NCBI GenBank assembly: GCA_976551045.1
Contig: CDPCPM010000571.1
Coordinates: 372,001 to 436,000 of the forward strand
DNA: 64,000 bases
Source: Glaucostegus cemiculus
Lineage: Eukaryota
Direction of reading: 5' to 3'
Below the pieces are notes generated by a model. That model did no database searches. It saw nothing but the letters and a program-made list of their open reading frames with translations, and had not been told where the DNA came from. A program made the translations under genes and the position numbers. This document shows, piece by piece, positions 16,960 to 60,140 of the stretch; the stretch's first letter is position 1, and each line of letters begins with the position of its first letter.

Positions 16960-19780
16960 AAGGAAAAAATTAAGGTACAAATCAAAGCTAGCTAGAAATG
17001 TTAAAAACAAATAGAAAGGGTTAAAGCAGATAGTTAAAAAAAAGTTAACAGAGTGAGCATTAGTCCTTCAGAAAGTGAGTCTGGGAAATTAAAAATGGAA
17101 AATAGATGTCAGATGAATTAAACAGGTTTTCACTAAAGGGGATAAAAGGAATATCCCAAATATACAGTGACATGCAAATATTTGGGCACCCCGGTCAAAA
17201 TTTCTGTTACTGTGAGTAGTTAAGTGAGTAGAAGATGAACTGATCTTCAAAAGTCGTAAAGTTAAAGATGAAACATTCTTTTCAACATTTTAAGCAAGGT
17301 TAGTGTATTATTTTTGTTTTGTACAATTTTAGAGTGAAAAAAGGAAAGGAGCACCATGCAAAAGTTTGGGCATCCCAAGAGATTTGAGCTCTCAGATAAC
17401 TTTTACCAAGGTCTCAGACCTTCATTAGCTTGTTAGGGCTATGGCTTATTCACAGTCATCATTTGGAAAGGCCAGGTGATGCAAATTTCAAAGCTTTATA
17501 AATACCCTGACTCCTCAAACTTTGTCCCAACAATCAGCAGCCATGGGCTCCTCTAAGCAGCTGTCTATCACTCTGAAAATTAAAATAAATGGTGCCCACA
17601 AAGCAGGAGAAGGCTATAAGAAGACAGCAAAGTGTTTTCAGGTAGTTGTTTCCTCAGTTCATAATGTAATTAAGAGATGGCAATTAAACGGTGGAGATCA
17701 AGTTGAGTTCTGGGAGATCAAGAAAACTTTCCAAGAGAACTGCTCGTAGGATTGCTAGAAAGGCAAATCAAAACCCCCGTTTGACTGCAAAAGACCTTCA
17801 GAAGATTTAGCAGACCCTGGAGTGGTGGTGCACTTTTCTACTGTGCAGCGACACCTGCACATATGACCTTCATGGAAGAGTCATCAGAAGAAAACCTCTC
17901 CTGCATCCTCACCTCAAAATTCAACATCAGAAGTTTGCAAAGGAACATTTAAACAAGTCTGATGCATTTTGGAAACATCCTGGGGACTGATGAGGTTAAA
18001 ATAGAACTTTTTGGCCGCAATGAGCAAAGGTATGTTTGGAGAAAAAAGGATGCAGAGTTTCATGAAAAGAACACTTCTCCAACTGTTATGCACGAGGGTG
18101 GATCGATCATGCTTTGGCCTTGTGTTGCAGCCAGTGGCACGGGGAACATTTCACTGGTCGAGGGAAGAACGAATTCAATTAAGTACCAGCAAATTCTGGA
18201 AGCAAACATCACACCGTCTGTAAAAAAGCTGAAGATGAAAAGAGGATGGCTTCTACAACAGGATAATGATCCTAAACACACCTCAAAATCCACAATGGAC
18301 TACCTCAAGGCACAAGCTGAAGGGTTTGCCATGGCCCTCACAGTCTCCTGACCTAAACATCATCGAAAATCTGTGGATAGACCTCAAAAGAGCAGTGCAT
18401 ACAAGACGGCCGAAGAATCTCACAGAACTAGAAGCCTTTTGCAGGGAAGAATGGATGTAAATTCCCCCAAACAAGAATTGAATGACTCTTAGCTGGCTAC
18501 AGAAAGTGTTTACAAGCTGTGATAATTGCCAAAGGGGTTGTTACTAAGTACTGACCACGCAGGGTGCCCAAACCTTTGCTTCGGGCCCTCTTCCTTTTTT
18601 GTTATTTTGAAACTGTAAAAGATGGAAATAAAAAAGTAATCTTGCTTAAAATATTAAAGAAATGCATCATCTTTAACTTTATGCCTTTTGGAAATCAGGT
18701 CATCTTTTACTTGCTTAGCTTTTCACAGTAACAGAAGTTTTGACCAGATATGCCCAAACCTTTCAATGCCACTGTTAGGAATTGGAAAAGAAAGGGTACT
18801 CAGAAAAATTGCAATCACCAAGGAACTGGTTCTGAGCAAACTGTTGAAGCTGTGCTCTGGCAACTCTCTGGGTACTGATGGACTTCATTCTGGGGTCATA
18901 AAAGTGGCCATTGAGATAAAATAGTGAAGGTAACTCCTTTATTCAAAAGGGAGGGAGAAACTACAGGCTAATCAGCTCAACATCAGTCTTGAAGAATATA
19001 AAGTCAAAGTCGAGTTTATTGTCATACGCACAAGTACATGTATGGACAGGTGCAATGAAAAACTTACTTGCAGCAGCATCACAGGCACAGAGCATCACAT
19101 ACACAACATTCATAAGAAAGTCACAAGAATGTTTGAAGCCACTATTAATGATGTTATAACAGGGCACTTAAAAAATTCAGATGTCATCAGGCAAAAGGGG
19201 AATCATGTTTGATTAAGTTACTGGAGTTCTTTAGAAGTAACTTATCTGTGGATAAAGGGAAGTCAGTGGGGTTATAAGATAAAGTGCCACATTATTGCGG
19301 AAAAGAAGGCTCATGGCATAGAGATTTCCTATTAGTCTGTGTGGAAGTCAGGCTAACAGGAAGCAGCAAGCAAAAATTGGGTCATTTTTTTTGGGTTGGC
19401 AAGTTGTAACGAGTAGAGTGCCACAGGGATCAGTGATGCAACTTCAACATTTTACAAGTGACTTGGATGAAAGCACTGAAAATACAGATGATAAATTTGT
19501 TGATGACAAAGGCAGGAAAGTTAGTTATGAAGAGGGAATAGGGAGGCTACATAGGTTCAGTTAGGTGAATGAGTAAAAATCCAGCAAATTAAGTATAATG
19601 CAGAAAACATGAAATTATCTGTTTGGCACTAAAAATAAAAAGGAAATTATATAAATAGTATGAGATTTCATTGCTTTGTAACGCAGAGGGATCTGGATGT
19701 CCCAGTACATAATTTGCAGCAGGGTAGTATGTGGGTACACCAAGTAATTGGGAAAATTTAACAGAATGTTATAGTACGAA
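16960..19780 (+). mobile_element. Old CR1 ORF2 remnant hosting the Tc1 and a short Rex-type tail
   Basis: CR1-like sequence on both sides of the Tc1 (ITKELVLSKLLKL..S.G.DGLH; gtgccacagggatcagt = GVPQGS). Confidence 0.7.
17165..18774 (+). mobile_element. Tc1/mariner DNA transposon, full length, IR/DR-type TIRs, disrupted transposase
   Basis: TA|CAGTG...CACTG|TT; ~210-bp imperfect TIRs each with two gcaaa..tttgggca.ccc repeats; transposase from ATG 17543 to TGA 18554 with GTDE, QQDNDPKH and SPDLNIIENLW motifs, broken by frameshifts. Confidence 0.95.
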
Positions 19781-20471: not shown

Positions 20472-22985
20472 TCAGAATCAGAATCAGTTTTATTGTCACA
20501 ACCATATATGCATAGGAGCGAGATACCGTCCTCCTCAGGTGCTCGTCCCATTAAATAACATAACAACCAACAGAGACACACAGACACACTTGACAGAATA
20601 AACATTAAAAAACATTAAACATTAAAAACTACGGAAGTTAAAATTAAATTAGTACACAGATTAAATTAAAAATGGCCAGTAAATAAATAAATAGTTATTA
20701 AAGTGAACGGGCTGGTGTCGGGCATTTAAAGTGCTGGTGCATTTCTGTGCACCTAGCATCTCTTAGTGTTAACAAAGGAAGATGGAGGGACGAGAGAGTT
20801 TGCAGTTCTGATGGCTTGCGGAAAGAAGCTATTGTTCAGCCTGGTCGTTCTTGCCCTGATACATTTAAGCCTCCTCCCTGATGGCAAAATTGTGAAGAGG
20901 TGGTGGGAGGGGTGAGAAGGGTCGGCCATTATGCTTTTGGTCTTCCTCACACAACGGTCTTTGTATATGTCTGCGAGGGATGGAAGCGAGACACCTATGA
21001 TCCACTCCGCAGCCCTAACTATCTTCTGGAGGGACTTCCGCCCAGCAGCTGAGCAGCTTCCAAACCAAACAGTGATACATTGAGTTAGGATGCTCTCAAT
21101 GGTCCCCCTATAGAAGGCTTTCATGACGGAGGGATGGGGGTACGCTTTCCTCAGTCTCCGCAGGAAGTAGAGGCATTTCTGAGCTTTCTTCGTGAGGGCC
21201 GTAATGTTAGTGGACCAGGTCAGGTCGTCGGTGATGTGCACCCCCAGGAACTTGGTGCTGCGTATTTGTTCCACAGCAGACCCGTTGATGGTCAGCGGGG
21301 CGTGCACACGGTGACCCCTCCTAAAATCCACTATCATCTCCTTGGTTTTATCCACATTCAAGGAGAGGTTGTTGTCATAGCACCACACGGCTAGTTGTTT
21401 CACCTCCTCTCTGTAGTCCAACTCATCGTCATTCATGACAAGACCCACCACTGTTGTGTCATCGGCAAATTTAACAATGCGGTTGGAGCTGGATCTGGCC
21501 TCACAGTCGTGAGTCAACAAGATGAACAGGAGCAGACTGAGCACACAACCCTGTGGGGAGCCAGTGCTCAGTGTGATGGTGCTTGAGCTGTTTTCACCAA
21601 TTTTGACTGACTGCGGCCTACAAGTTAGAAAATCCAGTATCCAGTTGCAGAGAGGAGAGTTAACGCCCAGAGCGCTCAACTCCTTGATTAGCTGTTGCGG
21701 GATGATGGTATTGAAAGCGGAGCTGAAGTCGATGAATAGCAGTCGGCAGTATGAATCCTTCTTCTCTAAGTGATATAGTGCAGAGTGCATGGCAGAGGAG
21801 ACTGCATCATCGGTGGACCTGTTTGCCCGATAAGCATACTGATGAGGATCCAAGGATGGGGGGAGGATGGCTCTAATGTGCTTCATAACTAGCCTCTCAA
21901 AGCATTTCATGACAATCGGGGTTAGAGCTATGGGACGGTAGTCATTCAGACACATTGGAGGAGACTTCTTAGGAACAGGTATGATGGTGGCAGATTTTAG
22001 GCACTTAGGAACAACAGCCTGCTGTAGGGAGATGTTGAAGATGTCAGCCAGTACATCTTTAAGCTGGTCCGCACAGTCCCTAAGTATCCGCCCCGGTATG
22101 TTATCCAGTCCCACAGCCTTCCGAGGGTTAACCTGTAAAAGGGCTTTCCCCACACTGGCTGGGGTGAGTCTCAAAGCCTGTTCTGTTCTTCTGGCGAAGG
22201 CCAGGCTTTCGAGGCAGGTGTATTGTTCATGGCCTCAAACCTTGCATAAAATTCTGGGGTAGAGCTTTGTAGTCAGTGATGACCTGGATTCCCTTCCACA
22301 GGCGCCTCGCATCCCTGTCGTTGGTGAAATTATTATTTATCTTTTCTGCGTATTGTCGTTTTGCCTTTTTAATACCCCGAGACAGATCTTTCCTTGCAGA
22401 CTTCAGAGCTCCCTCATCCCTCGCCCTGAAAGCTGCATCTCTGGTACGTAGCAGACAGCGAACCTCCCCAGTCATCCAGGGCTTCTGATTTGCCCTCACT
22501 GTAATCACTCTGTCCACAGTTACATCCTCAGTGCACTTTCTGATGTAGCATAGCACAGAGTCTGTATACTCTTGGATATCAATATGGTTGTCCTGAGTGG
22601 CTGCCTCTTTGAAGGTGTTCCAGTCCATAGTTTCCAGGCAGTCCTGCAGGGCTAAGACTTTTCCTTCAGGCCAAACCCGAATCAGTCTCTTGACTGGTTT
22701 GTCCAGTTTCACCTTAGGTCTATAGGCAGGCTTTAGCAGAATGGAGATGAGATCCGATGAGCCCAGGTGAGGGAGGGGGGATGCTCTATATGCCTCCTTC
22801 ACACTGCTGTAAACCTTATCCAGTGTATTATTCTCTCTGGTCGCAAAGTTTATGTGTTGGTGAAACTTAGGCAGGACTGTCTTTAGATCTGCGTGGTTGA
22901 AATCCCCCAATACAATGAAGAATGCATCAGGATGAGCGGTCTGTTGTTTACTGACGGCATCATATAATTCGTTCAGTGCCTCTTT
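20472..22985 (-). mobile_element. Rex1/Babar non-LTR retrotransposon, 5'-truncated, young
   Basis: ORF 22227-~22985 with the C-terminal part of an APE endonuclease (LGDFNH, NTLDKVY); uninterrupted 473-aa ORF 20753-22174 with RT ([31 protein letters not shown]); 3' GACAATAAAA plus (CTGATT)n tail. Confidence 0.93.
20753..22174 (-). CDS. Reverse transcriptase ORF of the Rex1/Babar element
   Basis: 473 aa open, all RT subdomain motifs visible. Confidence 0.85.
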
Positions 22986-23350
22986 AGGGGTCTTGACAGG
23001 CTGGAGGAGAAAGTTGAGGTGGAAAGGATGCTCCCTCTTGTGGGAGACTCCAGAACAAGGGGTCAATATTTAAAGACAAAGCGATGCCCCTTTCATACAG
23101 AGATGAGGCAATATTTCTTTTGTCATGTGTCCTGGTCTTTGGAACTTTATTCCTCAGAGGGCAGTGGAAAAACAATCACAGTGGTTATTTTTAAAAGCAG
23201 AGGTAGATAGACTCTTGATAAGCACGGAAGATAAACATTACCAAGGGAAGGCAAGAATGCAAAACTGAATTCACCATTAGATCACTCATGATCTTACTAA
23301 ATGGCAGATCAGGCTCAAGGAACTGAGCAGCCTATGCCTGCTCCTAAATC
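22986..23350 (+). mobile_element. CR1 3' end (continuation of the host CR1)
   Basis: ERMLPLVGDSRTRG...YFF and CR1 3' UTR. Confidence 0.8.
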
Positions 23351-30826: not shown

Positions 30827-31099
30827 CTGGAACACAATTCAGAATGGGAATTAATCAGCAACTGAAGAATAGTAATCACTTGTTGCAGTGCTCCACAGAG
30901 AAAACAGGCCCTTTGGCCCATCAAGCACCCACTACACCAAACCTATACTAACCCCTTTCTATTTTCTGCATGTTGCCATGAACTCTGCCCAGATTCTGCC
31001 ACTTACCTACATTTTACAGTAGCCAAGTAACCTACCAGTCCAGCACATCTTTGGGATGTGGGAAGAAACCTTATATCACAGATGATACAAACATTGCTG

Positions 31100-31755
31100 A
31101 GGAGTTTACAGAAAGATATTTTCCAACTGGTAAGTTGCGCAAAGGAATGGCAGGTGGAACTTAATCCTGATAAGTGTGAAGTGATGCATGTTAGGAGGTT
31201 AAAAAAAAAAAGAATAGTATATAGATAATGAATGGTTGGGCCCTTGGGGAGTACCGAGGAACAGAGGTACGGTGGTGTACAAGTCCAAAGATCCTTTACC
31301 ATGGTAGCACGGGTAAAGGCGGCACAAGGATGCTAGCCTTCGTTAGCTGGGGCACAGAATACAAGAGCAGGGAAGTTATGGTGCAGCCACATTCTGGTCA
31401 CACACTCTAGAAAGAACAGGAGTGCACTGGAGAGTGCAGAGGATAGTGCCTGGGATGAAGTGCCTCTGTTATAAGGAAATACTGAATGGGCTGGGCTTGT
31501 TTTCCTTGGTGCGGAGAAGGCCAACAAGGGACCCGAATAGTGACATACGAAATTGAGGGACATCGAGCAGGTGTTGGAACCTGAAACACATCGCCTGGGA
31601 GGGTGGTGGAGGCAGAAATTCTCAGAACATTTAACAAGTGTCTAGACGAGCACTTGCATCACCAATAATTGAAGGCTGTGGACCAAGTGCTGGTAAGTGG
31701 AAGGAATGCAGATGGTTGGGTGAAAGGCCTGTTCCTGTGTAGTATGACTCTATGA
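31100..31755 (+). mobile_element. CR1 3' fragment flanked by halves of a tRNA SINE
   Basis: CR1 remnant (WQVE.NP.KCEVMH); SINE parts at ~30890-31070 and ~31760-31890. Confidence 0.7.
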
Positions 31756-33899
31756 AATCAGAACACCCAGGGAAAATCATAGCAGTCACAGGGAGAATGT
31801 GTAAACTGCAGACTGACAGCACCAAGGTCAGGATTGAACAGGGTCAGATCTGTGAGGCAGCAGCTCTACTAACTGCGCCACTGTATTGCCCAATTTGCAG
31901 TAGTATTAATATAGAGTAGGTGAGATAAGTCAAAACAAATTACTTCAGACATGTGCAATTTGGCCAGTTAACAATTTACATGCACAAATATCAATAATAT
32001 ATTAATATACCATGTGAAACATTATTTTGAATAATCTTCAATTGAAACCATCACTTTAAACCTGTGACGATTACTCTAAAGCTCAGTACCAATTATTTGG
32101 GAAATCAATTACCAATCGCAGAATTATACAATGCATCAAAAGATCTTCTAATGCATCAAACCTGCGCCTGCTCTTCACAAGAGCTTTCCAACTCGTTCAC
32201 TCCCTGCTCTTCCCCCACCCCCACCCCCCCAGAGTCCTGAAACTTTTCCTCTTCAGGTATTTATTGAATTCTCTTTTTTCCAGATATTGTTGAATCTGCT
32301 TTCAGGCATATACAGATCAGGTCCCTTTTGTTTTTCAAATTTTAAACTTTACTTTAAAGTGGGAGGAAACTGGAGCACCGGTGGAAACCCACACAGACAC
32401 AATCTCCTCACAGAGAGCGACAGGAATTGAACCTCAATCACCGGCACTGTAATAGCGTTATGCTAACCACTACACTACCGTGCTGCCTTCTTTGCTTATT
32501 TCCTTAAACTTACATTCCCTCGTCATAAAGCTTCCAGCCAGCAGAAAGCAGTCTTCCTTATTCGTTCAAATCCTTTTCAAAATTGACCACACCTCTTTTA
32601 CTGTGGCCCCATGGCCTTCTCTGCTTTAAGAACATTCCTGGATTCTCAAGTCTCTCCATGTATTCAAAATACGTCAAGGCAGTAAAGACATGGCTCCGGT
32701 CGCATGCGTTAATTCCCTCAGTGACAGTCAGAAGCTTGCTAGGTCTGTGCATAATTTATGAAATCGGAGATAACTGCTTGAGCGTGACACAAGTTCCTTC
32801 GGAGCCCTTGGCTGATGAGGTGGTACAAAAGGGTTGGGTTGGTGGTAGAGAAAGAGGATTAGAATTTCATCACTGTAAAGGTGGCAAGGAGACACCTGGA
32901 TGCTGGTGGACAAAACTGGTTGCAGTGGTCCCCATGGTCAAAGTGCCCGATATTGAGGGCAGGATTGAAGTGGGGCGTAAGAGGTGAAAAACAATCAACA
33001 TTTTAGAAGTTCTGAAATCACACCTGTAAATGCCTGGGTTTTAAAATCAGCCATGACAGGATGTCCAACCTCTAATTCAAACCTGTATCTCCCCCAAACT
33101 GATGGCATTCCCTGCAGATTCCAGCAGTGAACTGGGGAATCGTATAAAAAAGGAAATCTTGCCCTTCTTGCGTCTTCAAATTTCATTCACATCCATTTTG
33201 GTTTATTCATTCAACCCTGTTCCAGTGGAGCACATTGCGTTTAATTTTGCACAGGTGAGGAAGTAAGGTGTGACCATATATATAACTAATGAAAAAAATA
33301 CCATGCATGCAAGCCCCTGACTCAAGACCACGTGGACCAGGTGGTGATTACTGTGTCTGGAACTTCATTGCAAGCCAATCATACTAAACAATTAGTGTGC
33401 AGTTTATCTTAAACAATGAGTATGAGGTTTGTCTTTGTATCTCAGGCTCCCCAATTGAAATCGGCGTAGTCGCATTGTTTAAGTGTGTGACAAGGACTGT
33501 ATAAATTAATGTCTTCCCCTCTGTATTGTGAGACCTCTGATCAAGACTCTGCATGAGAGTCAGGAGCATTCTCTCTGGCAGTATACTGCTAATAAATGTG
33601 TTTTAACAGAATTAATCTGTGGCACTGTGTGATTTTGCAGCAGGCAGGAGTGGGAACTTAAAATTGGGATAACATAGGTACCAAGAGGGCAGTCTGAATG
33701 GACAGTGAGATAAACTTTGTATTAAGTAGTTAGTGCATACAGTGGGAAGTGTGCACTGAGAATGTTATGGCAATCTAGCCCGTGTACAAATGATGACCTG
33801 ATTCTTGCAGCTAGACAAACTTGCATGCAAATATCCATCTTTAGTCAGCATAAAATCCCTCCAATCCAATATTAATTTCATGTGCCCAAGCCCTAGGGA

Positions 33900-34220
33900 T
33901 CATATAGCAGAGCAAGAGTTGGTGTGGGCGCTAGAGTAGGTTTGGAACAAGGGCTATACCACGTAACCAACAAAAAGACAGGCATAGCTGGGGACCACGC
34001 AACTACCCGTGGCTACACCTTTGATTAGAAGAATGTGGGAGGAATCAAAAAAGAACAAGTTCTGCCAGGCAGATGAGTGATTGGGGGAAGAGAACGGTTT
34101 GGGTCTTTGTTTCAGAAAGAAATGGACGACCTTAAGACCTTCCTGATGGGATAGAAATTGGATGCCCATGGTAAAGTTGAGGCAGCTGGGTCTGGGGAAG
34201 TGGAAGTATGCTGGAAGTGA
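33900..34220 (-). mobile_element. Penelope-like RT fragment
   Basis: IKGVATGSCVVPSYACLFVGYV. Confidence 0.8.
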
Positions 34221-34789
34221 ATTGGATTATGTCTGCATAATCTAAACCACACTAGCAATTAATGAATATTATGGAAGGTTCAATCTACATTAAGCCAAGC
34301 TGTATTTGTACATGGTGAATGCTAATAATGAGGACTTAACAAGAAAAGTGCTTTATTTTCCCTTACAAATATTTCCTACTTTCATGGTGCAGATGAAGCA
34401 GGATTGTATAAAATTTAAAACAAAAAGCTTTGACATTCAAAGGAATTCAGATAAAGGCAGTAAGCATCTGTTTACATGTGGAACCTTCCCTCCAAGTTAA
34501 TCAGAGTATCTTACCACGTCTAGCATTTGATACTGCAGGCACTTAGCTGGAACTATGAATGTAACCAGAGCTGTTGGTTCATAGAGAACAAATTAAAAGC
34601 ACACAGTACTTCACATCACTATTGGAAGCATCCAACAGGACATAAACACCTTCTCTCTTCACCAGTTGTAGATAAAGTGGCTGCACCAATTAACACAAAC
34701 CAAACCAAACCCTCTTCAATCTGTCCCAAGAATCAGACATTCAAGCCCTTGCACAAGGATGGCTTGTGAACTTTGGTTTGCTTTAATGA

Positions 34790-35530
34790 TTTATTTACTT
34801 GTTTTTGGAACCTGGGCACCAATGACGAGGACAGCATTTATTGTCGATCCCCACCTGCCCTAAAGAGGTCACGAAGAGCCATGTCCTGATCCACTGAAAT
34901 CCTTCAGGCAAAGGAACTCTCACAGTGTTATTGGGCAGGGAGATAGAGAATTTAGACCCAGCGACAATGAAAGTGAAGGTCAACAACATATTTCCAAGTC
35001 AGGACCATGTAACTCAGAGGGGAACCTGCAAATGGTGTTCCCATGCACCTAGTGCCCTCCTGCTTCTTAGTAGGAGAGGTCACAGGTTTGTAAGGTTCTG
35101 TCAGCGTAACCTAGGAGAGAACAGCAGTGCATTTTGTAGATTGCACAGTGGGAGGAATGAACGGTTAGTGTAGTGGGTGTAGTATCAGTGAAACAGACTA
35201 CTTTGTCCTGGGTAATGTGGAGCTTCTCAGCATTTGTTGGCACTGCACTCATTCAGTCAAATGGAGGATATCCCATCACATTCCTGACACTGGGTTTGTG
35301 GATGGTGAAAAGGCCTTGGGGTGTTAGGGGGTGGGTCACTCACCACAGACACCCAGCCACTGACCTGTTCATCTGGTCAATAGTAACCCCCAGGATGTAG
35401 ATAGTGGCAAATTCAGCAATGGCAACGCCATTGATTATCAAGGGTAGATGATTAGACTCCCTCTCCTTCGCACTTTTATGGCGAGAATATTAACTGGTTA
35501 CTCATCAGCCGCTGCTTGAATGTTATCTAG
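34790..35530 (-). mobile_element. CR1/L2-superfamily LINE 3' fragment (second family)
   Basis: Colinear with 24090-24860. Confidence 0.7.
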
Positions 35531-36449
35531 TGTACACTATGACGTGTTCTACACCCCTCCTCTACACAGTCTAGAAGAGCAGCATTGAAGGGGTCAGGGT
35601 AGGAGGTGGACATTCAGCCTAACTAAATGCTTCTGTTCCATACAAGCACCTCTTAACCTACTTCATCTCAACCCATTTGAATTAACCTCCTAAAGCCTTT
35701 CTACTTCCGGGTACTCATTCCCTTTCTCTAAATGCATTTATGCAATTTGCCTTAACCATGCCATGTGATAGCAAGTTCCACATTCTCACTTACTGTACAG
35801 TTTCTATCTGAATTCCTTACTACCTTAATTAGTGACACCCTTTCAGGACCTTTTTCAGGCCAACTGTTAGCTGACCCTTTTTCTAGATAAGAGGTGTCCC
35901 AGTTGATACTTAGTAGTTCTCAGCACTGGGAGCATCCTTGTGATCGCTTTTGTGCCTCTCCAATGCATTTATGTCCTTATTATAATATGGATAATGAACC
36001 TATCCATCGTAGTCCAACAAAGTTCATTCAAAACGCACTGCAACAGTGCATCTTGGAATATGTGACAACCCTCCTGAACTGTGAGTTCCACCAGCTCGAA
36101 GGATCAGGGCAGCAGGTGTGTGGAAACAGCATCATCTGCAATTTCCTCCCCAAAATATACACCTGCCCGACCGAGGTATGTTGCTCTTTCTTCACGCCAT
36201 TGCATCAAAATCCTGGAACTCTCTACCCAAGAACATAGTGGGAGTACCTACTCTACAATCTACCTACTCCCAATAGACCAATACAAGGACTATAATGGCT
36301 TAAGGAGGCAGCTCAGCACCACCCTCTCAAGGAGAGATAAAGATGGGCATTCAATGGGCCTTACCAGGGCACCAACATCATCTGTCTGAATAACACTACA
36401 CAGTCTAACAATTTTTGTCTTTCAATTCCATTCCTCCATAGATGAAAAT

Positions 36450-36662
36450 CGAAACAATTGCAGGTGCTGGAAATTTTAAGTAGAAGTAGAAAATGCTGAA
36501 AAATTTAGGTCAGGAGGCATCTGTGGAGAGAGGAACAACTGACGTTTCAGGTCTGAGACCCTTCGTCAGAGCTCAGTGAAAGGGATGCAGACCTGAGACA
36601 GTCATTGCTTCTCTTTCCTTGGATGCTCCCTGACCTGCTACATTTTTCCAACATTTTCTATC
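36450..36662. mobile_element. Short palindromic element made of two inverted Penelope termini
   Basis: gaaaatgctg...ggtcagg.ggcatctgtggagagag...tttcaggtctg.gaccctt mirrored by aaggg.tgcagacctga...ttcctt.gatgctccctgacctgct...catttt. Confidence 0.7.
36537..36573 (-). ncRNA. Penelope-type minimal hammerhead ribozyme motif
   Basis: Minus strand AGCT-CTGACGA-A-GGGTC-TCA-GACCT-GAAAC-GTC-AGTT: intact CUGANGA and GAAA boxes, stem II, palindromic ACGT stem III, GUC site, 4-bp stem I. Confidence 0.7.
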
Positions 36663-37029
36663 CTTCACAGATGAATCCTAGTATAGGTTTGATATTTTTT
36701 GATTTTTTTTAAACTTGCGTCATTCCTTAGCCACCTTTGACACACATGCACAATATCCACCCCATAATGTTTCGTTCTGGCCCAGCTTGGGAAATTGGAT
36801 ATGATTGTAAGTTGTGAAGAGGGCATAAGGAGGCTGCGGAGGACTATAGACAAGGATCTAGTATGTGGAGGACATGTTGAAAAAATGTGAAACTGTCCTC
36901 TTTGGCAGAAGAACGAAAAAACATACCATCTGGATGGTGGGAGATTTTAGAGCTCTGAGATGCAATAGGAATCTACATGATTCACAAAAGGTTAAAATCC
37001 AGGTACAAGTAATCAGAAGAGCTAATCGA

Positions 37030-37955
37030 GTGGTATTGGTATTGGTTTATTATCATCACTTGTACCGAGGTACAGTGAAAAGCTTGTCTTACAAACCGAT
37101 CGTACAGGTCAATTCATTACACAGTGCAGTTACACTGAGTTAGTACAGGTAAAAAACAGTAACAGTACAGAGTAAAGTGTCACAGCTACAGAGAAAGTGC
37201 AGCACAATAAGGTGCAAGGTCACAACAAGGTAGATCGTGAAGTCATAGTCCATCCCATTGTATAAGTCAACCGTTCAATAGTCTTATCACAGTGGGGTAG
37301 AAGCTGTCCTAAGTCTGGTGGTACATGCCCTCAGGCACCCTTCTACCCGATGGAAGAGGAGAGAAAAGAGAATGTCCCAGGTGGGTTGGGTCTTTGATTA
37401 TGCTGGCTGCTACACTAAGACGAGAGGTAAAGACAGAGACCAAGGAGGGGAGGCTGGTGTCCGTGATGCGCTGGGCTGTGTCCAAAACTCTCTCCAGCTT
37501 CTTACGATTCTGAGCAGAGCAGTTGCCGTACCAAGCCATGATACATCCAGATAGGATGCTTTCAGTGGTGCATCAGTAAAAGTTGGCAAGAGTCAAAGGG
37601 GACAAACCAGATTTCTTTAGCCTTCTGAGAAAGTAGAGGTGCTGATAAGCTTTCTTGGCCGTAGCATCCACATGATTTGACTAGGACAGGCTGTTGGTGA
37701 TGTTCACTCCCAGGAACTTGAAGCTCTCAACCCTCTCCACCTCAGCACCATTGATGTAGACAGGTGCATGTACACCACCCCCTTTCCTGAAGTCAATGAC
37801 CAGCTCTTTTGTTGACATTGAGGGAAAGGTTGTTGTCATGACACCATTCCACTAAGCTCTCTATCTCCTTCCTGTACTCCGACTCATCACTGTTGGAGAT
37901 ACAGCCCACAAAGGTGGTATCATCTGCAAACTTGTAGATGGAGTTAGAGCAGATT
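37030..37955 (-). mobile_element. Rex1/Babar 3' fragment inserted into a CR1 copy (36780-37030 and 37955-38510, +)
   Basis: WYGNCSAQNRKKLERV...LPSGRR; KFADD remnant at ~37920; tail gataataaaccaatacc. Confidence 0.85.
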
Positions 37956-39499
37956 GTTTATTGCTAGGGGAATTAAGTACAATAATGGGGAGATAATGCC
38001 TCAGTTGTATAGGACTTTGGTGCAACCACATCTGGAATACCGTGTGCAGTCTTGGTCTGACTTCAGGAAAGAGGGTTGTCTAATGAGAGGTTGGACAGGC
38101 TAGGATTGTGGTTGCTAGAGTTTCAATCAGAGGGAACTTGATTGAAACATTCAAGATCAGGAAGAGGCTTGACAGTGGTGAGGAAGTTTCCTCTTGAGGA
38201 AGAATCTAGAAGTAGGAGGTCACTGTTCAAAAATAAAGGGCCGCCAATTTAAGGCAGAAATAAGGCGATATTTTTTCCTATCAGAAGGTTGTTCATCATT
38301 GGAAGTCTCTTCCTTAAAGGGCGGGGAAAAGGGAGCCCTTGGATGTTTTTAACCCAGAGACACTGATGTTTAATAAGGGGGGGTAATAGGTTATTAGGGG
38401 TAGAGGGGAACATGGAGTTGAGGTTACAATCATAATCTTATTGAATGGTGGGCAGGCTTGGGGGCTGAACTGGGTGCTTACTTCTGCACCTGATTCACAC
38501 GTTTGCATACTCAGTGGAGCAAAGAAATAAGATTTAGTTATTTCTAGATAGAGTGCTGCTGGCAGCCTTGTAAAGCAGAACGTTTTGTCCGCATTTGCTG
38601 GTTTTTCTTCATAGCTCTCATTATTGGGCTGCTGCTGCTTTCTCCTGGAAAGTAAAGTAACACTTGCATTATTCGACAGTGCTTTTCTTTTTGTGGCCCA
38701 TGTGTGATTTGCTGCAGGAAGTGTAGAAGCAACTGGATGCAGGAGGCCCTCGCTTTCTTTTGGATCAATACAGAGATCGATGGGAGGGAAGCCATCAGTT
38801 TTTAAATTTACTGAAATATGGTGTTGTTCCTTTGCTAACAGCTCTTCCAGCTAAAAAGAATTCATTAGCAACACACCTTGAGAAGCCTTTTTACTAAAAT
38901 GTCTCAGCGAGATAATTAAAGTGTGTGTGGAGATACAGAGTGGAAATTGTTGCCTTTAGTTTAGGCAAAGCTTTTGCAGCAGCATGTTTTCCAGTCTTAA
39001 CAATAGGCTAGTCTGTGATTGGAGTGTCCTATTTTAATTGGCGTCTGATGATTTATAAAGGAGAGGAAAACAGAGGCTGAGGTGCTAGTGGTTGCCAACA
39101 GGATGCCTCCAGTCTTTAGTTGCCACTAAGTTGTTCTGTGTGCTGACTCTCATTTTAGTCCTGACTGATACTTGATTGCTGAGTTGTGAATATGCTTGCG
39201 ATTTTAACCACCTAAATGGCTCCTTCAGCCAGCATTACTCAGACTTCCAAGGAACAGATGCCTGCTACCAGTCCAAGTCAAACAAACACAGGGCTCAATC
39301 GCAATGAAAGACTTAGAACAAAACTAAGGGTGCAACTGCTGATGCAGATGTACAATAAATTCTGCAATAACTAAGACATGTACTTAATTGGCTTGCCGTC
39401 ATATTTCTGATACAGTACTGCTCACAGTACAACTAAATTTATACTAGATCCAACAGCTGTGATTTTAATTTGAAATGTAATGAGGTCTTCATAATCTAT

Positions 39500-39770
39500 A
39501 ATTCAAGTATAAGATCTTTATTAGTCACATGTACATCAAAACACACGTTGAAATATATCTTTTGTGTAGTAATTTTTGGGAGGCAGCCTGCAAGTGTCGC
39601 CACACTTCCGGCACCAACATAGCATGCCCATAACTTCCTAACGTGTACGTTTTTGGAATGTGAGGGGGAACCGGAGCACCCGGAGGAAACCCACACAGAC
39701 ACACGGGGAGAATGTACAAACTCCTTACAGACAGCGGCGGGAATTGAACCCGGGTCGCTGGCGCTGTCCA
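39500..39770 (-). mobile_element. tRNA-derived SINE with Rex-type tail
   Basis: B-box ggttcaattccc; tail gtacatgtgactaataaagatc. Confidence 0.8.
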
Positions 39771-42372
39771 GAATCACCAACAGCACTATCCAAGGAGGCA
39801 TCGGACTCTACTGGCCAGCCCCACTGCTGTATGATCAAGTCCAATGCTTTGTAGTTTGCTCCTGATTCAGGAGTTGATAATGCTCTCAGCCCTACTCAGA
39901 ATATATGAAGGTATGAGGCTTAGTTTTGTGTCAATTTCCAGGTTTACTTGTGTGAAAAGCGCTTATTGGTATACCTTTTGCCCCAATGTACAAAAAAATA
40001 CCTATATCAGGTGTAACGACAGATTTAGTAATAGCAAACACCCAGTTCTATTGTACTGTACTGTTTTTTCCATCATGGGCATGGATGTTAGATATTGTGA
40101 AATGATGATTATGAAACACTGGTGACAAGTTGGAATATTTTATTCTAGCATTGTGAAGCTGCATCCTTGTAGTTGGCCTGCATCCTTGTAGTTGGCCTGC
40201 ATCTTGGTCTGTTTCCAAGACATATGGGTTTGAGAGTGGGAAATCTGCATCAACATTAGTATAGGCATTTGTAAGCACAGCAACAAGGCAAGGGCTTTAA
40301 CAACAGATGGGCCGAGGCAGGGCAAAGAGGACAGTGTTTTTTGCTTGGCAAAGCCATTAGATGTTGTGGAACCAAGGCAGATAAATGAAGTTGAGATACA
40401 GATGAACTATGATACAAGAGAAGGATGGAACAGGCTTAAGGAATGAAAGCCCACTCTTGCTCCTATGCTAGTGAGATGAAATTATGAAATACCTGAAGCT
40501 TAGTTCAGGGTTGAAGAAGATGCCAAGATTGTGAAGAGTCTGGTTCAGTCTGGAGCACTGGTGAAGGAAGAAAATTAAATGAGTGGTAAGATTCCAACAC
40601 TTGTACTAGGAGCCAAAGACCACTGGAGCTCATCCAAAGCAGTTCTGTCCTGACAGCAGAGCGCTTGATATGGAAAAGTTTCTGAAACTGTGAAGGAGAG
40701 GTGAGATGTTTGCATGTCTTCTTGGTGGTATATTCATTTGTTAGCATGCTTTCTCTCGAGTCTCAACAAATCAGATCAGCACAACAGGGTTACAGGATGA
40801 CAACCTTGAAGCAGCAAATCACTGGGGAAGGTCGACAATGGAGCCTGACATTCTCCGAATGATCTCCCAGCACATTACCTTAATCCTGCAAAAGCATGTT
40901 TGAACTGGTTGAACAGTTAAAATTCAATTTAATTTGTAAAACGGTATTTTATGAAATATTAATGGACCAAAAACACAGACAGAATGACTCTCCTCAGCTG
41001 CTAAGGAGTTAGAAACACCGGTTACAAAAAAGAAATCAAAATATAAAAACATAATTCTCCACATTTTAAAGGAAGGAAACGGAGCATATGGAAGAAGTTA
41101 AAATGGAAGGATATGTTGGGGGGAAGGGTTTAGATAGCTTTTAGGTGAGGTTTAAAGGTCCGCACAACATTGTGGGCCAAAGGGCCTGTATTGTGCTGTA
41201 CTTTCTATGATTATAGGAAACCATTATTAGCTTGTTTTATTCTGTATCATTGTAGTCACATGTATAAAGACACAAGTGCACAAAAGTATCTGGTCATTTA
41301 CATCTGATTTAACATGCTTCCAGACTGTCAATCCAGAACTCCCAAAAGATAAATTGTACACCACTATTTTAGATGTCCTACATAAAAAGTACCAAGCAAA
41401 TACAAGTCCATTGCTACAACCTGGTCTCTGACAGCATAAGGGTCATTAGATAAGGTAATGCTCTGCAATGCACAAGGAGATGTACAACTACCACAGACAC
41501 ACACCTGCCTGCAATGGGATATTAAAAGTTCCTCTTGTATCACACAAGAGTACCCGTGTCACAGTGTTTCTCCTTCCAAATACTAGGATAGATTTCCCCT
41601 TTTCCTCAGTCTTTGTATTTAGAAGAACACACCTCCAAAAGGAGCCATTCCCTCTCAGACACTCTGGTTCACTCATTCCCAACCAATACTCAGCGCCCCG
41701 TTCCCTGTCACCTTCTCATCTCCCTTCCTACCATTAAAAACATCCAACACCCTTTCAGAGTGAAATAGCAAGTTAATTGTAATTCTTTTAACACAATATA
41801 CTGTAATAGCTGACATTGATACAGTTCCTTCATCAAGGGGAAGCAATGGTTTTGTTCAATTATGACCCTGAGCTTCGGGTCAACTTTGAATCTGCATCCC
41901 ACTCGCACTCTGGTCTATCTATCCTCAGACAGCTTAAGGAACAGTACCTCATCTTCTCACTGGTCATCTGCTGCTAAACTGTAGTGAATACGGTTGTGCT
42001 GGTTGGTTCAAGAACCCAATGGTTGAAGGGAAGTAGCTGTTCTTAAACCCAATGGTGCGGATCTTTAGGCTTGATCAAAATCTCTGAACTAAGACTGCTA
42101 CATTACAATGTGCAGCTGGCCATAAAGTGTTTTGGGGCACCCAAAGGCCATGAATGGCACTGTATACATGCAGGACTTCCTCCAAAATTGCTGACAGACC
42201 TCAATTGTAATTGCAGGTTCTAGCCACTAGGTGGTCCCATAAGGTGAAATTCTGACCCATTTCTTCCAACTTGGTCACTATTTTCCATACACAGCAAGAA
42301 AACACAGTCAGCAACCAATTGCAGACGATTCTCTAAAGGAAGTGACTTTGGTTAAAAATTCTCTGCACTCAC

Positions 42373-44439: not shown

Positions 44440-46550
44440 GAGACACAGGAGACCGCAGATGCTAGAATATAGAGCAATAGATAAACTCAGCGGGTCAACC
44501 AGCATCTGTGGAGGCAAAGGAATAATCAATGTTTCAGGTCAAGACCCTGCATCAGGACCAAGGGGAGATGGCCAGTATATTGAAGTGAGTAGGAGTGTTG
44601 AGAGTGGTTGGTAGGTGATAGGTGGAAATATAAAGAAAGGGGGGAAAAAAATACCAAACAGAGCTCAGCACGGGAGGGGAAGGGAGAGAGAAGGGTAGGG
44701 ACAGAGGCTGGTAGGTGATGGGTGGAATCAGGTAAGGGAGGGACAATGGGCAGATGGAACCAGGTGGGGAGAGGATAGGAATGGTGAACTAAGGGAGAAA
44801 AAACCCAGGTGGAGAGGTATTTGGGTGATGGGCAGATGGAACTAGGGGAGTGGACGATGAGGCTGGCTTACACCAGATTGGGGGAGGTGCACGTGAATCT
44901 CTGCCTCACCTGGAAGGATTGCGAGGGAGGAGGTGTAGGGACAGGAGTTGCGCCTTCTATGGTTGCAGGGGAAAGTGCCGGGAACAGACATGGAGGGGTG
45001 GTGGGACCATTGGAGCTGGCAACAATGGCGATATGTTGGATGCAGAGGCTAGTGGGGTGGAGGGAGAGAGCTGGGGGAACTCTCTCTGTTCTGTGAGAGG
45101 GTGGGGGGGGTGGTACAAATGTAGGGGAAATGGAGAAAATGCAAATGAAGGCTCAATGAACTACAGCAGGGAGTCCATGTTCTGTGAAGGAGGAGGACAT
45201 TTCAGGAGTCTTTGAGTGGAAAGCCTCACCTTGATAGCAGATGCAACAACAGACAGGGTAAGTTACAGAGGCACAGTGGAAGGAGAAGTAGTTGAGGTGG
45301 CTGTGGGAGTCAGTGGGTTTACCATGGATATTGAAGGTTAGTTTGTCTCTTGAGATGGAGACAGAGAGCCAGAAAAGGAAGAGAAGTGTCAGAAACAGTC
45401 CGGGTGAACTTGAGGGCAGGGTGGAATTGATGAGTTCCACACGAGTGCAGAAAGCAGTATCACTGCAGTCATTGATGTAGCTGAGAAAAAGATGGGTAGA
45501 GGTGGCAGAGTAGGTTTCAAGCAAAATCTGTTCCATGTAGCCAACAAAAGGCCAATGTAGCTGGGGCCCCTGGCTACACCTTTGTTTTATAGAAAGTAGG
45601 AGGGAAGATATCGTGGGAAATTGCAAGTTCTCACAGGCAGATGAGTGCTGGTGGAGGGGAACCGGTTGGGTCTTTCCTCCAGAAAGAAACAGAGGACCCC
45701 CAAGACCTTCCTGATGGGGGAAGGAGGTATGTAGAGACTGGACATCCATGGTAAACATGAGGTAGTTGGGACCATGAAGTTGGAAGTTGTCAGAATGGTG
45801 GAGGGCATGAGGGGTGTCCCAGATGTATGTGGGAAGGCAGGGGGAGATCAGATAGAGTGAAGGTATGGAGAGATGAGTTCTGTGGGGCAAGAGCAGGCAG
45901 AAACAATGGGTTTACTAGGACAGTCCTTTTTATAGTCCTTGGGTAAGAAATAGAAGCTGGCTGTGCAGGGTTGAGGCACTATCAGGTTCTGGAGGGGAGA
46001 TCACTAGTAACAGTGGTGAGTGCGTGGGATGGGCTGCCAGTGGATACGATAGGGTTTTTTTAAGAGACTTTTGGATAGGTACATGGAGCCGAGTAAAATA
46101 GACGGCCATGGGTAAGCCTAGTAATTTCTAATGTAGGGACACGTTTGGCGCAGCTTTGTGGGCCGAAGGGCCTGAATTGTGCAGTAGGTGTTATGTTTAT
46201 GATAAAGGGAGAGGGTGGCCTGGTGTTTGTTAGTGGGGTCATGGTCCAGGGAAAGACACGAGGTGGTGTCCGAGAGTCTGGCCTTTGCAAAGTAGAGCTC
46301 AGTGTACCAGACCACAACAGCATCACCTTCATCTGTGGGCTTGATGACGAGGGTGGGATTAGTGCAAAGTGAGCCGAGGGTTGCACGTTCAGAGAGGATG
46401 ACACTGGAATGGGCGAGAGGAGCAGAGAATTCAAGATGGTCAATGTTACATTGGCAATTGGAAATGAAAAGGTCAAGAGAGGGGAGTGCTGGAGACATGA
46501 GAAAGGGTTGTCCATGGAGAGATGATGATTCCTCACTGAAGAAATAGACA
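44440..46550 (-). mobile_element. Penelope-like element (decayed), with a CR1 tail inserted at ~46050-46200
   Basis: VIKPTDEGDAVVVW, FTMDVQSLHTS.PH, YINDC and KPTDSH..LNY motifs; terminal repeat at 44440-44560. Confidence 0.85.
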
Positions 46551-47770
46551 TGGAGGTGAAGGTAAATACTGACAGTCTTGCATATATCACTACTTCATCC
46601 TGTTATAGCACAAGCAGTTCAAGTCTTGTACCCACAAGTATCTGCTGTCCGAATACTAGTGACAGATTTTGTATCCCAGTGCTGAACCACGAACTATGCT
46701 CACTGGTACCATATTCCAGTGTATCAACCTGGACTCTCTATTTCAATACCCTTACCTTTCCCAGTCTAGGACCACAAGGACAGGGATTAAACAATACGTC
46801 CCTCAAGCTTGCTCCACCATACAAGGGCATCATTAATGACGTGATCCAACTCATCTCATCAATACCTTTCATAATCAAAAATCCATCAACCACTGCCTTA
46901 AAATAAACAAGTCACCAGAATCAATTGCACTTTGTAGATGAGTACTTCCTACTTCCAACACTCTTTATACATAGAAGCATTACCCAACCACTCCTGAAAG
47001 GCTCAACTCATTACTAAACCGTGCCCACTACTCCTAGGTGCATTGAGGAAAACCTCAGTTCCACTAATATCATGAAAACATCAGTTACCCTCTGATAATC
47101 CACACTCTGGGAACTTTTGCGGTGCCAGAAGAGCAGATTTTTGAGACTACTGAATGCAACTCGTATCATCCTCCAAGGTGAAACATTCAAGGGCATCGCA
47201 CCCTGGGCCTTGGTTCCAGCCGCGTACACAAACCTGACCACAGGTTCCTGACCACCCACTCCTCCCCCACCACCACCCACTCCTCCCCCACCACCCTCCA
47301 GCTCAACCACACACCTGGCCCATGCAGTCAGCAATACACAGCCAACCTCACAAGTACACAGATAACGAGGACTTGTAGTGTACTTATGAGCAACCCAGAT
47401 GCAGGACTACTGGGATTTCTGAATGATGAAATACCAGATGATTCGAGTTTTACTGTACAATTGTGAAAAATCTATGTTGCAATTCCTCCGATATGCATTA
47501 AACTAATATTGTACCCCACTATAACATGGCAACAGATCTGTATCAACCAGTTACTAAATCCAAGTGACACGTGATCTGTAGTCTCCCATAAAGTACCCCA
47601 GTATTATGCAGTAATGCAACTGTATTCATTACAATGTGACAGCTCTGTGATCCAGCAATACTGGGAATGATAACATGGTTGTTAGATTACTGGAGAAGTA
47701 ACCAAAGCTGTGGACTGAAGATTCCAAAGCAAGAGTTCAACTCACAGCATGGCAGATGTAGAATTTAAAA

Positions 47771-53019: not shown

Positions 53020-53910
53020 AGTAGTGGAGGCTGGCTATCCACCCTTTCCCACTCCCACCAATCCACTCAGGTTCTCTATTCATCCATTTTATCCCTCTGC
53101 ACCCCCCTCCCCACTATTGTCAAGTCTAGTTACCCTTCCCTGCCTCGTTCCATCTAACCATCACCTGTATACCTATCTACCTGGGTATTTTTCCTCCCTT
53201 AGTTCACATATCCTATCCCCTCTCCCACCTGTCCATCATCCCTCCCTTATCTGATATCACCTATCACCTTCTGTTCACCCCTCCCTCTCACCTCTTTACA
53301 ATGGCGACCTTCCCTCCACACATCACAATTCTGATGCAGGATCTCAATCCGAAATAACAATCATCCCTTTACCTCCACAGATGCTGCTTGACCTGCTAAG
53401 TTCTTCTAGTAGCTTTTTTTTTTGCTGGTAGAGACTGGTTGGTCAGTCAGTCAAGAGAGGAAGGCTAGCTGGTTGGCTGGGGAAGGGAGGCAGGGAGGGT
53501 GGAACAGATGGATGGAGCAGCCAGTGGGTAAGGACGAGGGAGGGAGGCAGGCCCGGGCCAGCAAGACAGGGACAAAGCACAGGTGGGCAAAGAAGAGAGA
53601 GATGGAGATAGGCAGGTGGAGGAGCAGTGGGAGGGTGAGAGGGGGAATAATGAGAGGACGGTGGGACAAGTGGCAGGGCAAGGACAAAAAGTGCAAGTGG
53701 TTAATGCACAAAAGGGTCTGAGAGAGAGCACATCTTGTAACTTATGCAAGATTCTGCCTCCTGATGAATAAAATCCATCCTTGAACCAACAATTTGACTG
53801 TTGACCTGAAATGCTGACTGTTTCTCTTTCCACCAGAGCTGGCTGACCTGCTGGGCATTTTCTGTTTTTATTTCAGATTTCAAGTATCTGAAATGTTTTG
53901 ATTTTCAGTT
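53020..53910. mobile_element. Penelope-like terminal fragments
   Basis: C-rich and G-rich tracts with terminal motifs at ~53331-53410 and ~53800-53890. Confidence 0.6.
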
Positions 53911-58719: not shown

Positions 58720-60140
58720 TATTATCAGAATAAGGATCAGGTTATCTCTGACGTGTCATAAAATTTACTGTTTTGCAGCAGTACAGTGCAAGACAAAAGT
58801 TACTGAAAGTTTCAAAAATAAATAGTGCAAAAGAGGAATAACGAGGTAGTGTTCATGGACTGTTCAGAAATCTGATGGCGGAGGGGGAAGAAGCTGTTCC
58901 TAAAACATTGGGTGTGGGCCTTCAGACTCCTGTACCTCTTCCCCGATCATAGTAATGCAAAGAGGGTCCTTAATGATGGTTGCTACCTTCTTGAGCCATA
59001 GCCTCTTGAAGATGTCCTCACTGGTGGGGTGGGTTGTGTCCATGATGGAGCTGGCTGAGTCCACAATCCTCTGCAGCCTCTTTCGATCCTGCGCATTGGA
59101 GCCTCCATATCAGGCGGTGATGCAATCAGTCAGAATGCTCTCCACCGTACAGCTGTAGAAATTTGCAAGGGTCTTTGGTGACATACTGAATCTCCTCGAA
59201 CTCCTAATGAAGTAGGGCCATTGGCGTGCGTTCTTCATGATTGTATCAATGTGTTGGGCCCAGGATAGATCCTCCGAGATGTTGACACGCAAGAACTTGA
59301 AGCTGCTCACGTTTTCCACCGCTGACCCCTCAATGAGGACTGGTGTGTTCTCTCCCGACTTCCCTTTCCTGAAGTCCACAATCAATTCCTTGGTCTTGCT
59401 GACATTGAGTGTGAGGTTGTCGTTGTGACACCACTGAAGCAGCTGATCTATCTCACTCCTGTATGCCTTCTCATCATCATCTGCGATCCTGCCAACAACA
59501 GTGGTCTCATAGGCAAATTTATTGATGGTGTTTGAGCTGTGCCTAGCCACACAGTCATAAGTGTAGAGAGAGTAGATCAGTGAGCTAAGCACGCATCCTT
59601 GAGGTGCACCTGTGTCGATTGTCAGTGAGGAGGAGATGTTATTACCGATCCGCACTGACTGTGGTCTCCTGATAAGGAAGTTGAGGATCCAGTTGCAGAG
59701 GGAAGTACAGAGGCCCACGTTTTGAAGCTTGTTGATTAGTACTGAGGGGATGATGGTGTCGAATGCTGAGCTGTAATCAATAAACAGCAGCCAGACGTAT
59801 GTTTTGATGTTGTCTATGTGCTCCAGAGCCAAGTGGAGAGTCAGTGAGATTGCATTCGCTGTAGATCTGTTGTGGCGGTAGGCGACCTGCAGCCGGTCCA
59901 GGTCCCTGCTCAGGCAGGAGTTAATTCCAGCCATGACCAACCTCTCAAAGCCCTTCATCACAGTAAGTGAGAGCGCTACTGGGCGACAGTCATTGAGGCA
60001 GCTCGCCCTGCTCTTGGGCACCAGTGTGATTGATGTCCTTTTGAAGCAGGTGGGGACCTCAGACCACAGCACTGAGGTTGAAGATGTCCTTGAACACTAC
60101 AGCCAGTTGGTCAGCACCGGTTTTCAGTACCCTGCCAGGT
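58720..60140 (-). mobile_element. Rex1/Babar fragment with a 320-aa RT ORF
   Basis: [29 protein letters not shown]; catalytic FADD mutated to FAYE. Confidence 0.9.

Follow-up and report, generated by a model that had tools for sequence, protein, structure and literature searches.

The closest described counterparts of the motif analysed here are the minimal hammerhead ribozymes (min-HHRs) of metazoan Penelope-like elements (PLEs). A single min-HHR shows no cleavage and dimers cleave weakly (Cervera and De la Pena 2014, PMC4209133); the same paper calls the G10.1-C11.1 pair highly conserved, yet this pair is absent from its descriptor. As for the elements themselves, the accessible parts of PMC3846280 and PMC8557442 describe an insertion layout with inverted ends, junction palindromes, a one-sided tail of 30-40 bp and target-site duplications. 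According to the available portion of PMC11167929, the PLE protein of Anolis both nicks and extends the two strands, initiates at two positions, which define the tail, and uses mainly uncut RNA; the hammerhead of this element cut only when the protein was present. Hammerheads are also found in host introns, and the accessible part of PMC6155905 describes conserved ones of amniotes, located in RECK and CTCL introns. Our literature search, with most subscription journals, Repbase and supplements outside its scope, returned nothing on the BRAF locus or on palindromic PLE hammerheads of cartilaginous fish.

Results

A hammerhead motif on the sense strand of BRAF intron 2

The window, i.e. the whole 64-kb stretch of DNA that was analysed, contains two exons with PDB matches to B-raf (E 1.5e-17 and 8.5e-32). 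The exon 42474-42373 encodes residues 47-80, and the exon from 30826 carries B-raf onward from residue 80. The splice sites flanking the intron between them are canonical (GT...AG).

30827..42372, minus strand: BRAF intron 2 (from PDB exon matches and splice sites; numbering by human residues)

This intron is 11.5 kb long, and the motif lies near its middle, about 5.7 kb from either end, on the BRAF sense strand. The exon matches and the splice sites thus confirm the location proposed in an earlier note made from the sequence alone. Read on the minus strand from 36573 to 36537, the motif is composed as follows.

36537..36573, minus strand: minimal type I hammerhead motif
36573-36570, minus strand: stem I 5' strand, AGCU
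36569-36563, minus strand: core box, CUGACGA
36562, minus strand: extra A of the motif
36561-36549, minus strand: stem II, GGGUC UCA GACCU
36548-36541, minus strand: GAAAC-GUC
36540-36537, minus strand: stem I 3' strand, AGUU

Stem I has 4 bp (AGCU/AGUU) and stem II 5 bp, each with one G-U, and stem III is reduced to the palindrome ACGU. C17 corresponds to 36541, with the predicted cut between 36541 and 36540. The minus strand reads exactly as the earlier note had claimed, for letters, stems and cut site alike. The published min-HHR definition comprises a CUGANGA...GAAA...UH core with an extra nucleotide after position 9, a helix I of 4-5 bp, a formable helix II, a palindromic 15.2-16.2 and no helix III, and the motif has each of these. 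All 13 of the 13 core letters are kept in the BRAF intron copy, CpG included, and no other site in the 64-kb window matches a pattern that combines the two core boxes with the ACGU palindrome. A search against Rfam gave no hammerhead family at the gathering score, nor among 10 matches up to E 10. The pair 10.1-11.1 is a G-U wobble, as in 11 of 26 distinct intact copies, and this wobble likely results from CpG decay.

Several other frames related to mobile elements were observed in the window. A decayed Penelope-like element in BRAF intron 1 (about 44450-46600, minus strand) has broken RT frames at 45153-46602 and a same-strand pseudo-LTR (pLTR) arm 600 nt downstream of them. LINE-type reverse transcriptase frames are located in BRAF introns at 20753-23069 (minus strand; RVT_1, E 3.5e-33), where one frame is open over 493 aa and looks young, and at 59110-60096 (minus strand; RVT_1, E 1.9e-23). 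A frame at 17953-18351 (plus strand) resembles what is presumably a Tc1/mariner transposase fragment.

The motif ends the long arm of a palindromic element

The motif constitutes the inner end of the long arm of a 218-nt head-to-head repeat (36443-36660).

36443..36573, minus strand: long arm, 3' part of a PLE pLTR, bearing the hammerhead and a long tail (profile match 36570-36456, E 1.1e-24)
36572..36660, plus strand: short inverted arm, a second, decayed copy of this pLTR end (profile match 36579-36662, E 3.1e-14)
36569..36574, no strand: head-to-head junction, GAGCTC palindrome (from sequence)
36432..36446, plus strand: left copy of a likely target-site duplication (13/15 nt match the right copy)
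36661..36675, plus strand: right copy of the likely target-site duplication

The outer boundary of the long arm was set from the sequence and the flanking repeat, and the inner boundary of the short arm is approximate. The long arm falls into subfamily A, one of four groups, with 77% identity to the A consensus. In the short arm, which is transcribed ahead of the hammerhead on the BRAF strand, the hammerhead core is broken and the tail is about 30 nt shorter than that of the long arm. The inner AGCT of the junction forms the 5' strand of stem I, in the four letters directly preceding the junction, and the last 4 nt of the left duplication copy overlap the element end. No ORF is present between the arms. 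The arms are complementary at 70% over 57 nt plus an outer 17-nt pair, and the fold of the palindrome has a z of -6.3, with 0/200 shuffles equally stable. The palindromic element of about 210 nt that had been noted is thus real, with a length of 218 nt.

Contigs of four other organisms cover the locus with about 91-95% identity and carry the insertion at the orthologous site in all four cases, one of them spanning 36200-36884 unbroken, which indicates that the insertion is older than those splits. Among the listed differences from these organisms, at a locus where paralogous contigs dominate the depth, one is inside the motif: all four relatives have A, not G, at 36571. The change converts stem I position 2 from U-G to C-G and, since all four relatives have A, the C-G pair is specific to this lineage or individual. 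At a change of about 4-5% per branch, we estimate that some half of lineages would retain the 13 letters by chance, and an intact core in four close relatives would therefore carry little weight.

The arms follow Penelope-like reverse transcriptases

PLE-type RT relatives were searched with a decayed reading frame from elsewhere in the window, and 20 of the 150 loci listed were picked for score or long open frames. At 16 of these 20 loci a same-strand arm lies within 1.7 kb downstream, against an 18% background (p 3e-9), while an opposite-strand arm was near one of the 20. Frames from four RT loci all gave weak RVT_1 matches, and one of the four a weak C-terminal GIY-YIG match, in each case below the Pfam curated cut-offs; Pfam returned nothing meaningful for three out of three of the window's own decayed PLE pieces. 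A cysteine cluster precedes the GIY-YIG region in the RT-locus frames and, by analogy with the description in the accessible part of PMC8557442, suggests a PLE of Neptune or Nematis type. The location of pLTRs beside an ORF with RT and GIY-YIG thus holds at the family level, the BRAF copy itself being without an ORF. Arms near the 20 RT loci belong mostly to groups B and D, with one A-type arm, and the direct parent element of the BRAF copy was not found among these loci. Judged by its sequence and its origin, the BRAF motif is a member of the known PLE minimal hammerheads, and the PLE minimal type I hammerhead proposed by the earlier note is supported on both counts, the arms being downstream of PLE-type RT.

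The arm profile has 16 matches in the 64-kb window. In a sample of 1.37 Mb, made of 137 10-kb stretches spread evenly (not drawn at random) over 19 large contigs out of 1,511 in all, it identified 304 arms, with 0 in the reversed control. The density of 222 arms per Mb extrapolates to about 630,000 genome-wide, and arms occupy about 2% of bases in the first 77 stretches. Four arm groups (A-D) are distinguished; the BRAF copy is nearest to A, the oldest, whose members average 71% identity to the A consensus. An exact 29-nt pattern of core plus stem II matches the BRAF locus alone, so there is no near-identical young sibling.

In the arm consensus, profile positions 35-52 and 83-101 each form a pyrimidine tract with a terminal CAG and thereby resemble 3' splice sites. 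Judging from these letters, arms on the sense strand of a host intron could be used as cryptic acceptors.

The layout of the BRAF element recurs among the sampled arms. Of 50 arm pairs that lie close together, 40 have a head-to-head orientation, and 30 of these 40 consist of one long and one short arm (p 0.001). High-scoring flanking direct repeats of varied lengths were found for 8/40 pairs and for 0/40 mismatched controls (rank test p 0.0006). The BRAF element itself has the features of EN+ PLE insertions, namely head-to-head ends, a one-sided tail and a target-site duplication. Since 183 of the 304 arms begin in profile positions 1-10, most copies run through the cut site, consistent with the use of uncut RNA by the Anolis PLE protein, as given in the accessible part of PMC11167929. 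Truncation at the ribozyme cut site was considered as a source of arms and rejected: 15/304 arms start in bin 31-35, and each of the two adjacent bins has 9 starts.

Such a palindrome could also represent a non-autonomous family spreading as a unit, in a MITE-like or retrozyme-like manner, rather than a by-product of PLE insertion. Indeed, 80 of the 304 arms are in head-to-head pairs, and several subfamily C pairs have a similar centre. However, inner truncation points and junctions vary across the 40 head-to-head pairs, which points to repeated PLE-insertion by-products more than to one mobile palindrome. Besides, most arms are solo, the flanking repeats vary in length and the arms are asymmetric, as in PLE insertions, and the best of 40 scored relatives of the BRAF element is 73% identical over nearly its full length. 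A retrozyme-like family is further opposed by the missing tandem head-to-tail layout, with 3 + 5 same-strand pairs out of 50. We consider such a family improbable; for the non-autonomous PLE derivative suggested in the earlier note, no separate family is needed, the junctions being different among the 40 pairs.

Intact cores are common and the core decays like the tail

Genome-wide, 6,718 sites match the exact intact-core pattern, compared with 3 for the reversed pattern; the arm sample contains 5 intact cores vs 3.2 expected, and about 14% of 64-kb windows are expected to hold one. A second intact sense-strand core is present in BRAF itself, 59 kb downstream (L233, near 7919, minus strand; G000:C571, about 349,900), and a further one is antisense (L234, near 9006, plus strand), both of group B. 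This search covered the window and 120 kb downstream, the span of the remaining kinase exons.

Intact cores are dense on contigs C2 and C7, many of them of group B, with at least 22 on the 4.9-Mb C2 against a genome mean of 2.4 per Mb.

Conservation of the core was compared with that of the tail in the 154 of 304 arms that cover both, at non-CpG core positions; since this selection prefers arms whose first box is good, it is biased toward finding excess conservation. The group consensus is matched at 1361/1613 core sites (84.4%) and 4924/5957 tail sites (82.7%; p 0.11). In group A the values are 622/781 (79.6%) and 2175/2814 (77.3%), with p 0.17; group B gives p 0.48, and in group D the core is less kept than the tail (p 0.10). 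On the other hand, the core is better kept in group C (257/287 vs 934/1129, p 0.005, one of four tests). Overall, therefore, the core is no more conserved than the flanks across copies, the outcome that the earlier note had named as speaking against its proposal, with group C as the exception.

In group C, which makes up 29 of the 154 arms, C replaces A at core position 9 in 27/29. Examples are found in the window at 44555-44451 (minus strand), 48144-48025 (minus strand) and 53330-53425 (plus strand), as well as at L085 and L112. Group C may represent either a naturally occurring variant of the core or a lineage that spread in spite of a dead ribozyme.

Independent site decay predicts 4.1 intact cores among the 154 arms, and 5 were observed. 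For group A about 1% is expected (0.68 of 73) and 0/73 was observed. With 73 per 1.37 Mb, group A arms extrapolate to the order of 150,000 genome-wide, so that more than a thousand intact ones are expected. The BRAF copy is thus a rare survivor, and ascertainment explains its intact core, although this does not disprove selection.

The motif is predicted to misfold

In the 37-mer alone, CUGACG is predicted to pair with CGUCAG over the cut site in 90% of the ensemble, and the hammerhead fold lies 7.3 kcal/mol above the ensemble; among 30 other intact copies, namely the first of the 6,718, the median is 1.8. Within the whole element the gap reaches 22.7 kcal/mol; the other copies, taken with 100 nt on either side, have a median of 8.5 and a highest value of 22.9. 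For the double-hammerhead homodimer, the energy exceeds that of two monomers by 18.5 kcal/mol, compared with a median of 5.5 and a range of 1.7-20.3 for the other copies. For all six transcript lengths, the probability of stem I is 0.000 and the GAAAC-GU strand is mostly paired. These folding energies ignore tertiary contacts, kinetics and proteins. A search for a compatible dimer partner in the gene, covering the window and a further 120 kb downstream, gave none, the stem I strands of L233 mismatching those of the BRAF motif at or beside the first pair. The calling of the motif 'intact' in the earlier note is thus correct for its letters and not for its predicted fold, in which the core box pairs across the cut site. 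Its suggestion that the decayed opposite arm could sequester the motif agrees with the whole-element gap and the loss of stem I. On these predictions, the BRAF copy is probably inactive.

Could the host nevertheless have adopted this copy? Such a ribozyme would cut BRAF intron 2 in the cell, aided by protein or co-transcriptional folding, like the intronic hammerheads of amniotes. In favour of this, the motif has every core letter and is read in the sense orientation, the lineage-specific substitution at 36571 replaces U-G by C-G in stem I, four related organisms carry the same insertion and, in the accessible part of PMC11167929, a protein can switch on a PLE hammerhead. Against this, the motif has no stem III and no visible tertiary-contact loops, and is predicted to misfold as monomer, as dimer and in context. 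The sole other intact sense-strand core found in the gene, 59 kb downstream, has mismatched stem I strands, and cores of this kind are expected at the frequency per window given above. The amniote intronic hammerheads, by contrast, have been described as deeply conserved and as having tertiary contacts. We therefore regard adoption by the host as very unlikely. The same low credence is given to a domesticated ribozyme in the full sense, i.e. a PLE hammerhead that is fixed at one intron site in five or more related species, is maintained by selection and, once a protein has opened the hairpin, cuts nascent BRAF RNA, so that a retrotransposon ribozyme would control a growth-signalling gene. If true, this would show that a minimal ribozyme which depends on dimers can work by itself within a host gene.

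That the hammerhead likeness is a chance sequence within the repeat is hardly credible: the lack of an Rfam hammerhead match and a covariation not above shuffles (60/500 as high; 31 intact copies, 26 of them distinct, a pattern-chosen and closely related set that makes the test weak) would fit with it, but the 6,718 vs 3 pattern matches, the 84% of stem cells paired in intact copies vs 13-44% in slid controls, and the presence of every listed published min-HHR feature at the 3' end of a PLE argue against it.

Discussion

The BRAF element is likely an old, extremely truncated head-to-head PLE insertion. Its hammerhead letters were probably kept by chance, and it is not predicted to cut BRAF pre-mRNA. 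A PLE protein would have nicked the target, and the end of an uncut element RNA would have been copied twice, one cDNA with a tail of roughly 30 nt and the other without. The two short cDNAs would then have been linked in head-to-head orientation immediately 5' of the hammerhead, and neutral decay would since have brought the copy to about 77% identity. Within BRAF pre-mRNA, the core is predicted to be paired, either to the strand of the cut site or to the arm upstream, and a partner for the dimer required by such ribozymes is predicted to be missing.

In this genome about 2% of the sequence is pLTR ends, about 1% of these ends keep an intact core, and the core decays at the rate of the tail. 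Given this baseline, an intact-looking hammerhead in any long intron of such a genome needs evidence from orthologues or cleavage before it is called functional. BRAF as a host is a coincidence at the expected rate, the motif being one of thousands of look-alike cores. The self-cleaving RNA of special interest that had been suspected in this proto-oncogene transcript finds no support, since such cores are common, their frequency matches neutral decay, the predicted fold is worse than that of most other intact copies and no compatible dimer partner was found in the gene.

Comparison with known systems shows the following. Animal non-LTR retrozymes, in the accessible part of bioRxiv 10.64898/2026.07.22.740005, are also non-coding, carry a type I hammerhead, originate from PLE pLTRs and occur in introns. 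They consist, however, of head-to-tail tandem units with a hammerhead each, whereas the BRAF element is one inverted pair. Identity with a non-LTR retrozyme was accordingly rejected: there are no tandem units, and one inverted pair and one core are found in 64 kb. With the amniote intronic hammerheads, as presented in the available part of PMC6155905, the BRAF motif shares its place on the sense strand of a host intron.

The likeness to EN+ PLE insertions, as described in the accessible parts of PMC8557442, PMC3846280 and PMC11167929, includes head-to-head inverted ends with a junction palindrome, a tail on one end and a target-site duplication of about 8-16 bp; with no ORF between its arms, the BRAF element differs in being the shortest form of this layout. 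With the metazoan PLE min-HHRs of PMC4209133, whose main text names genomes other than those of sharks or rays, the BRAF copy differs in its 10.1-11.1 pair, G-U and not G-C, and in the predicted competing 6-bp pairing of the core. It shares with them the CUGANGA and GAAA core with the extra nucleotide between 9 and 10.1, the helix I of 4-5 bp, the palindromic 15.2-16.2 and the absence of helix III, as well as the location at the pLTR end, the thousands of solo copies per vertebrate genome and the occurrence of opposite-strand pairs close together.
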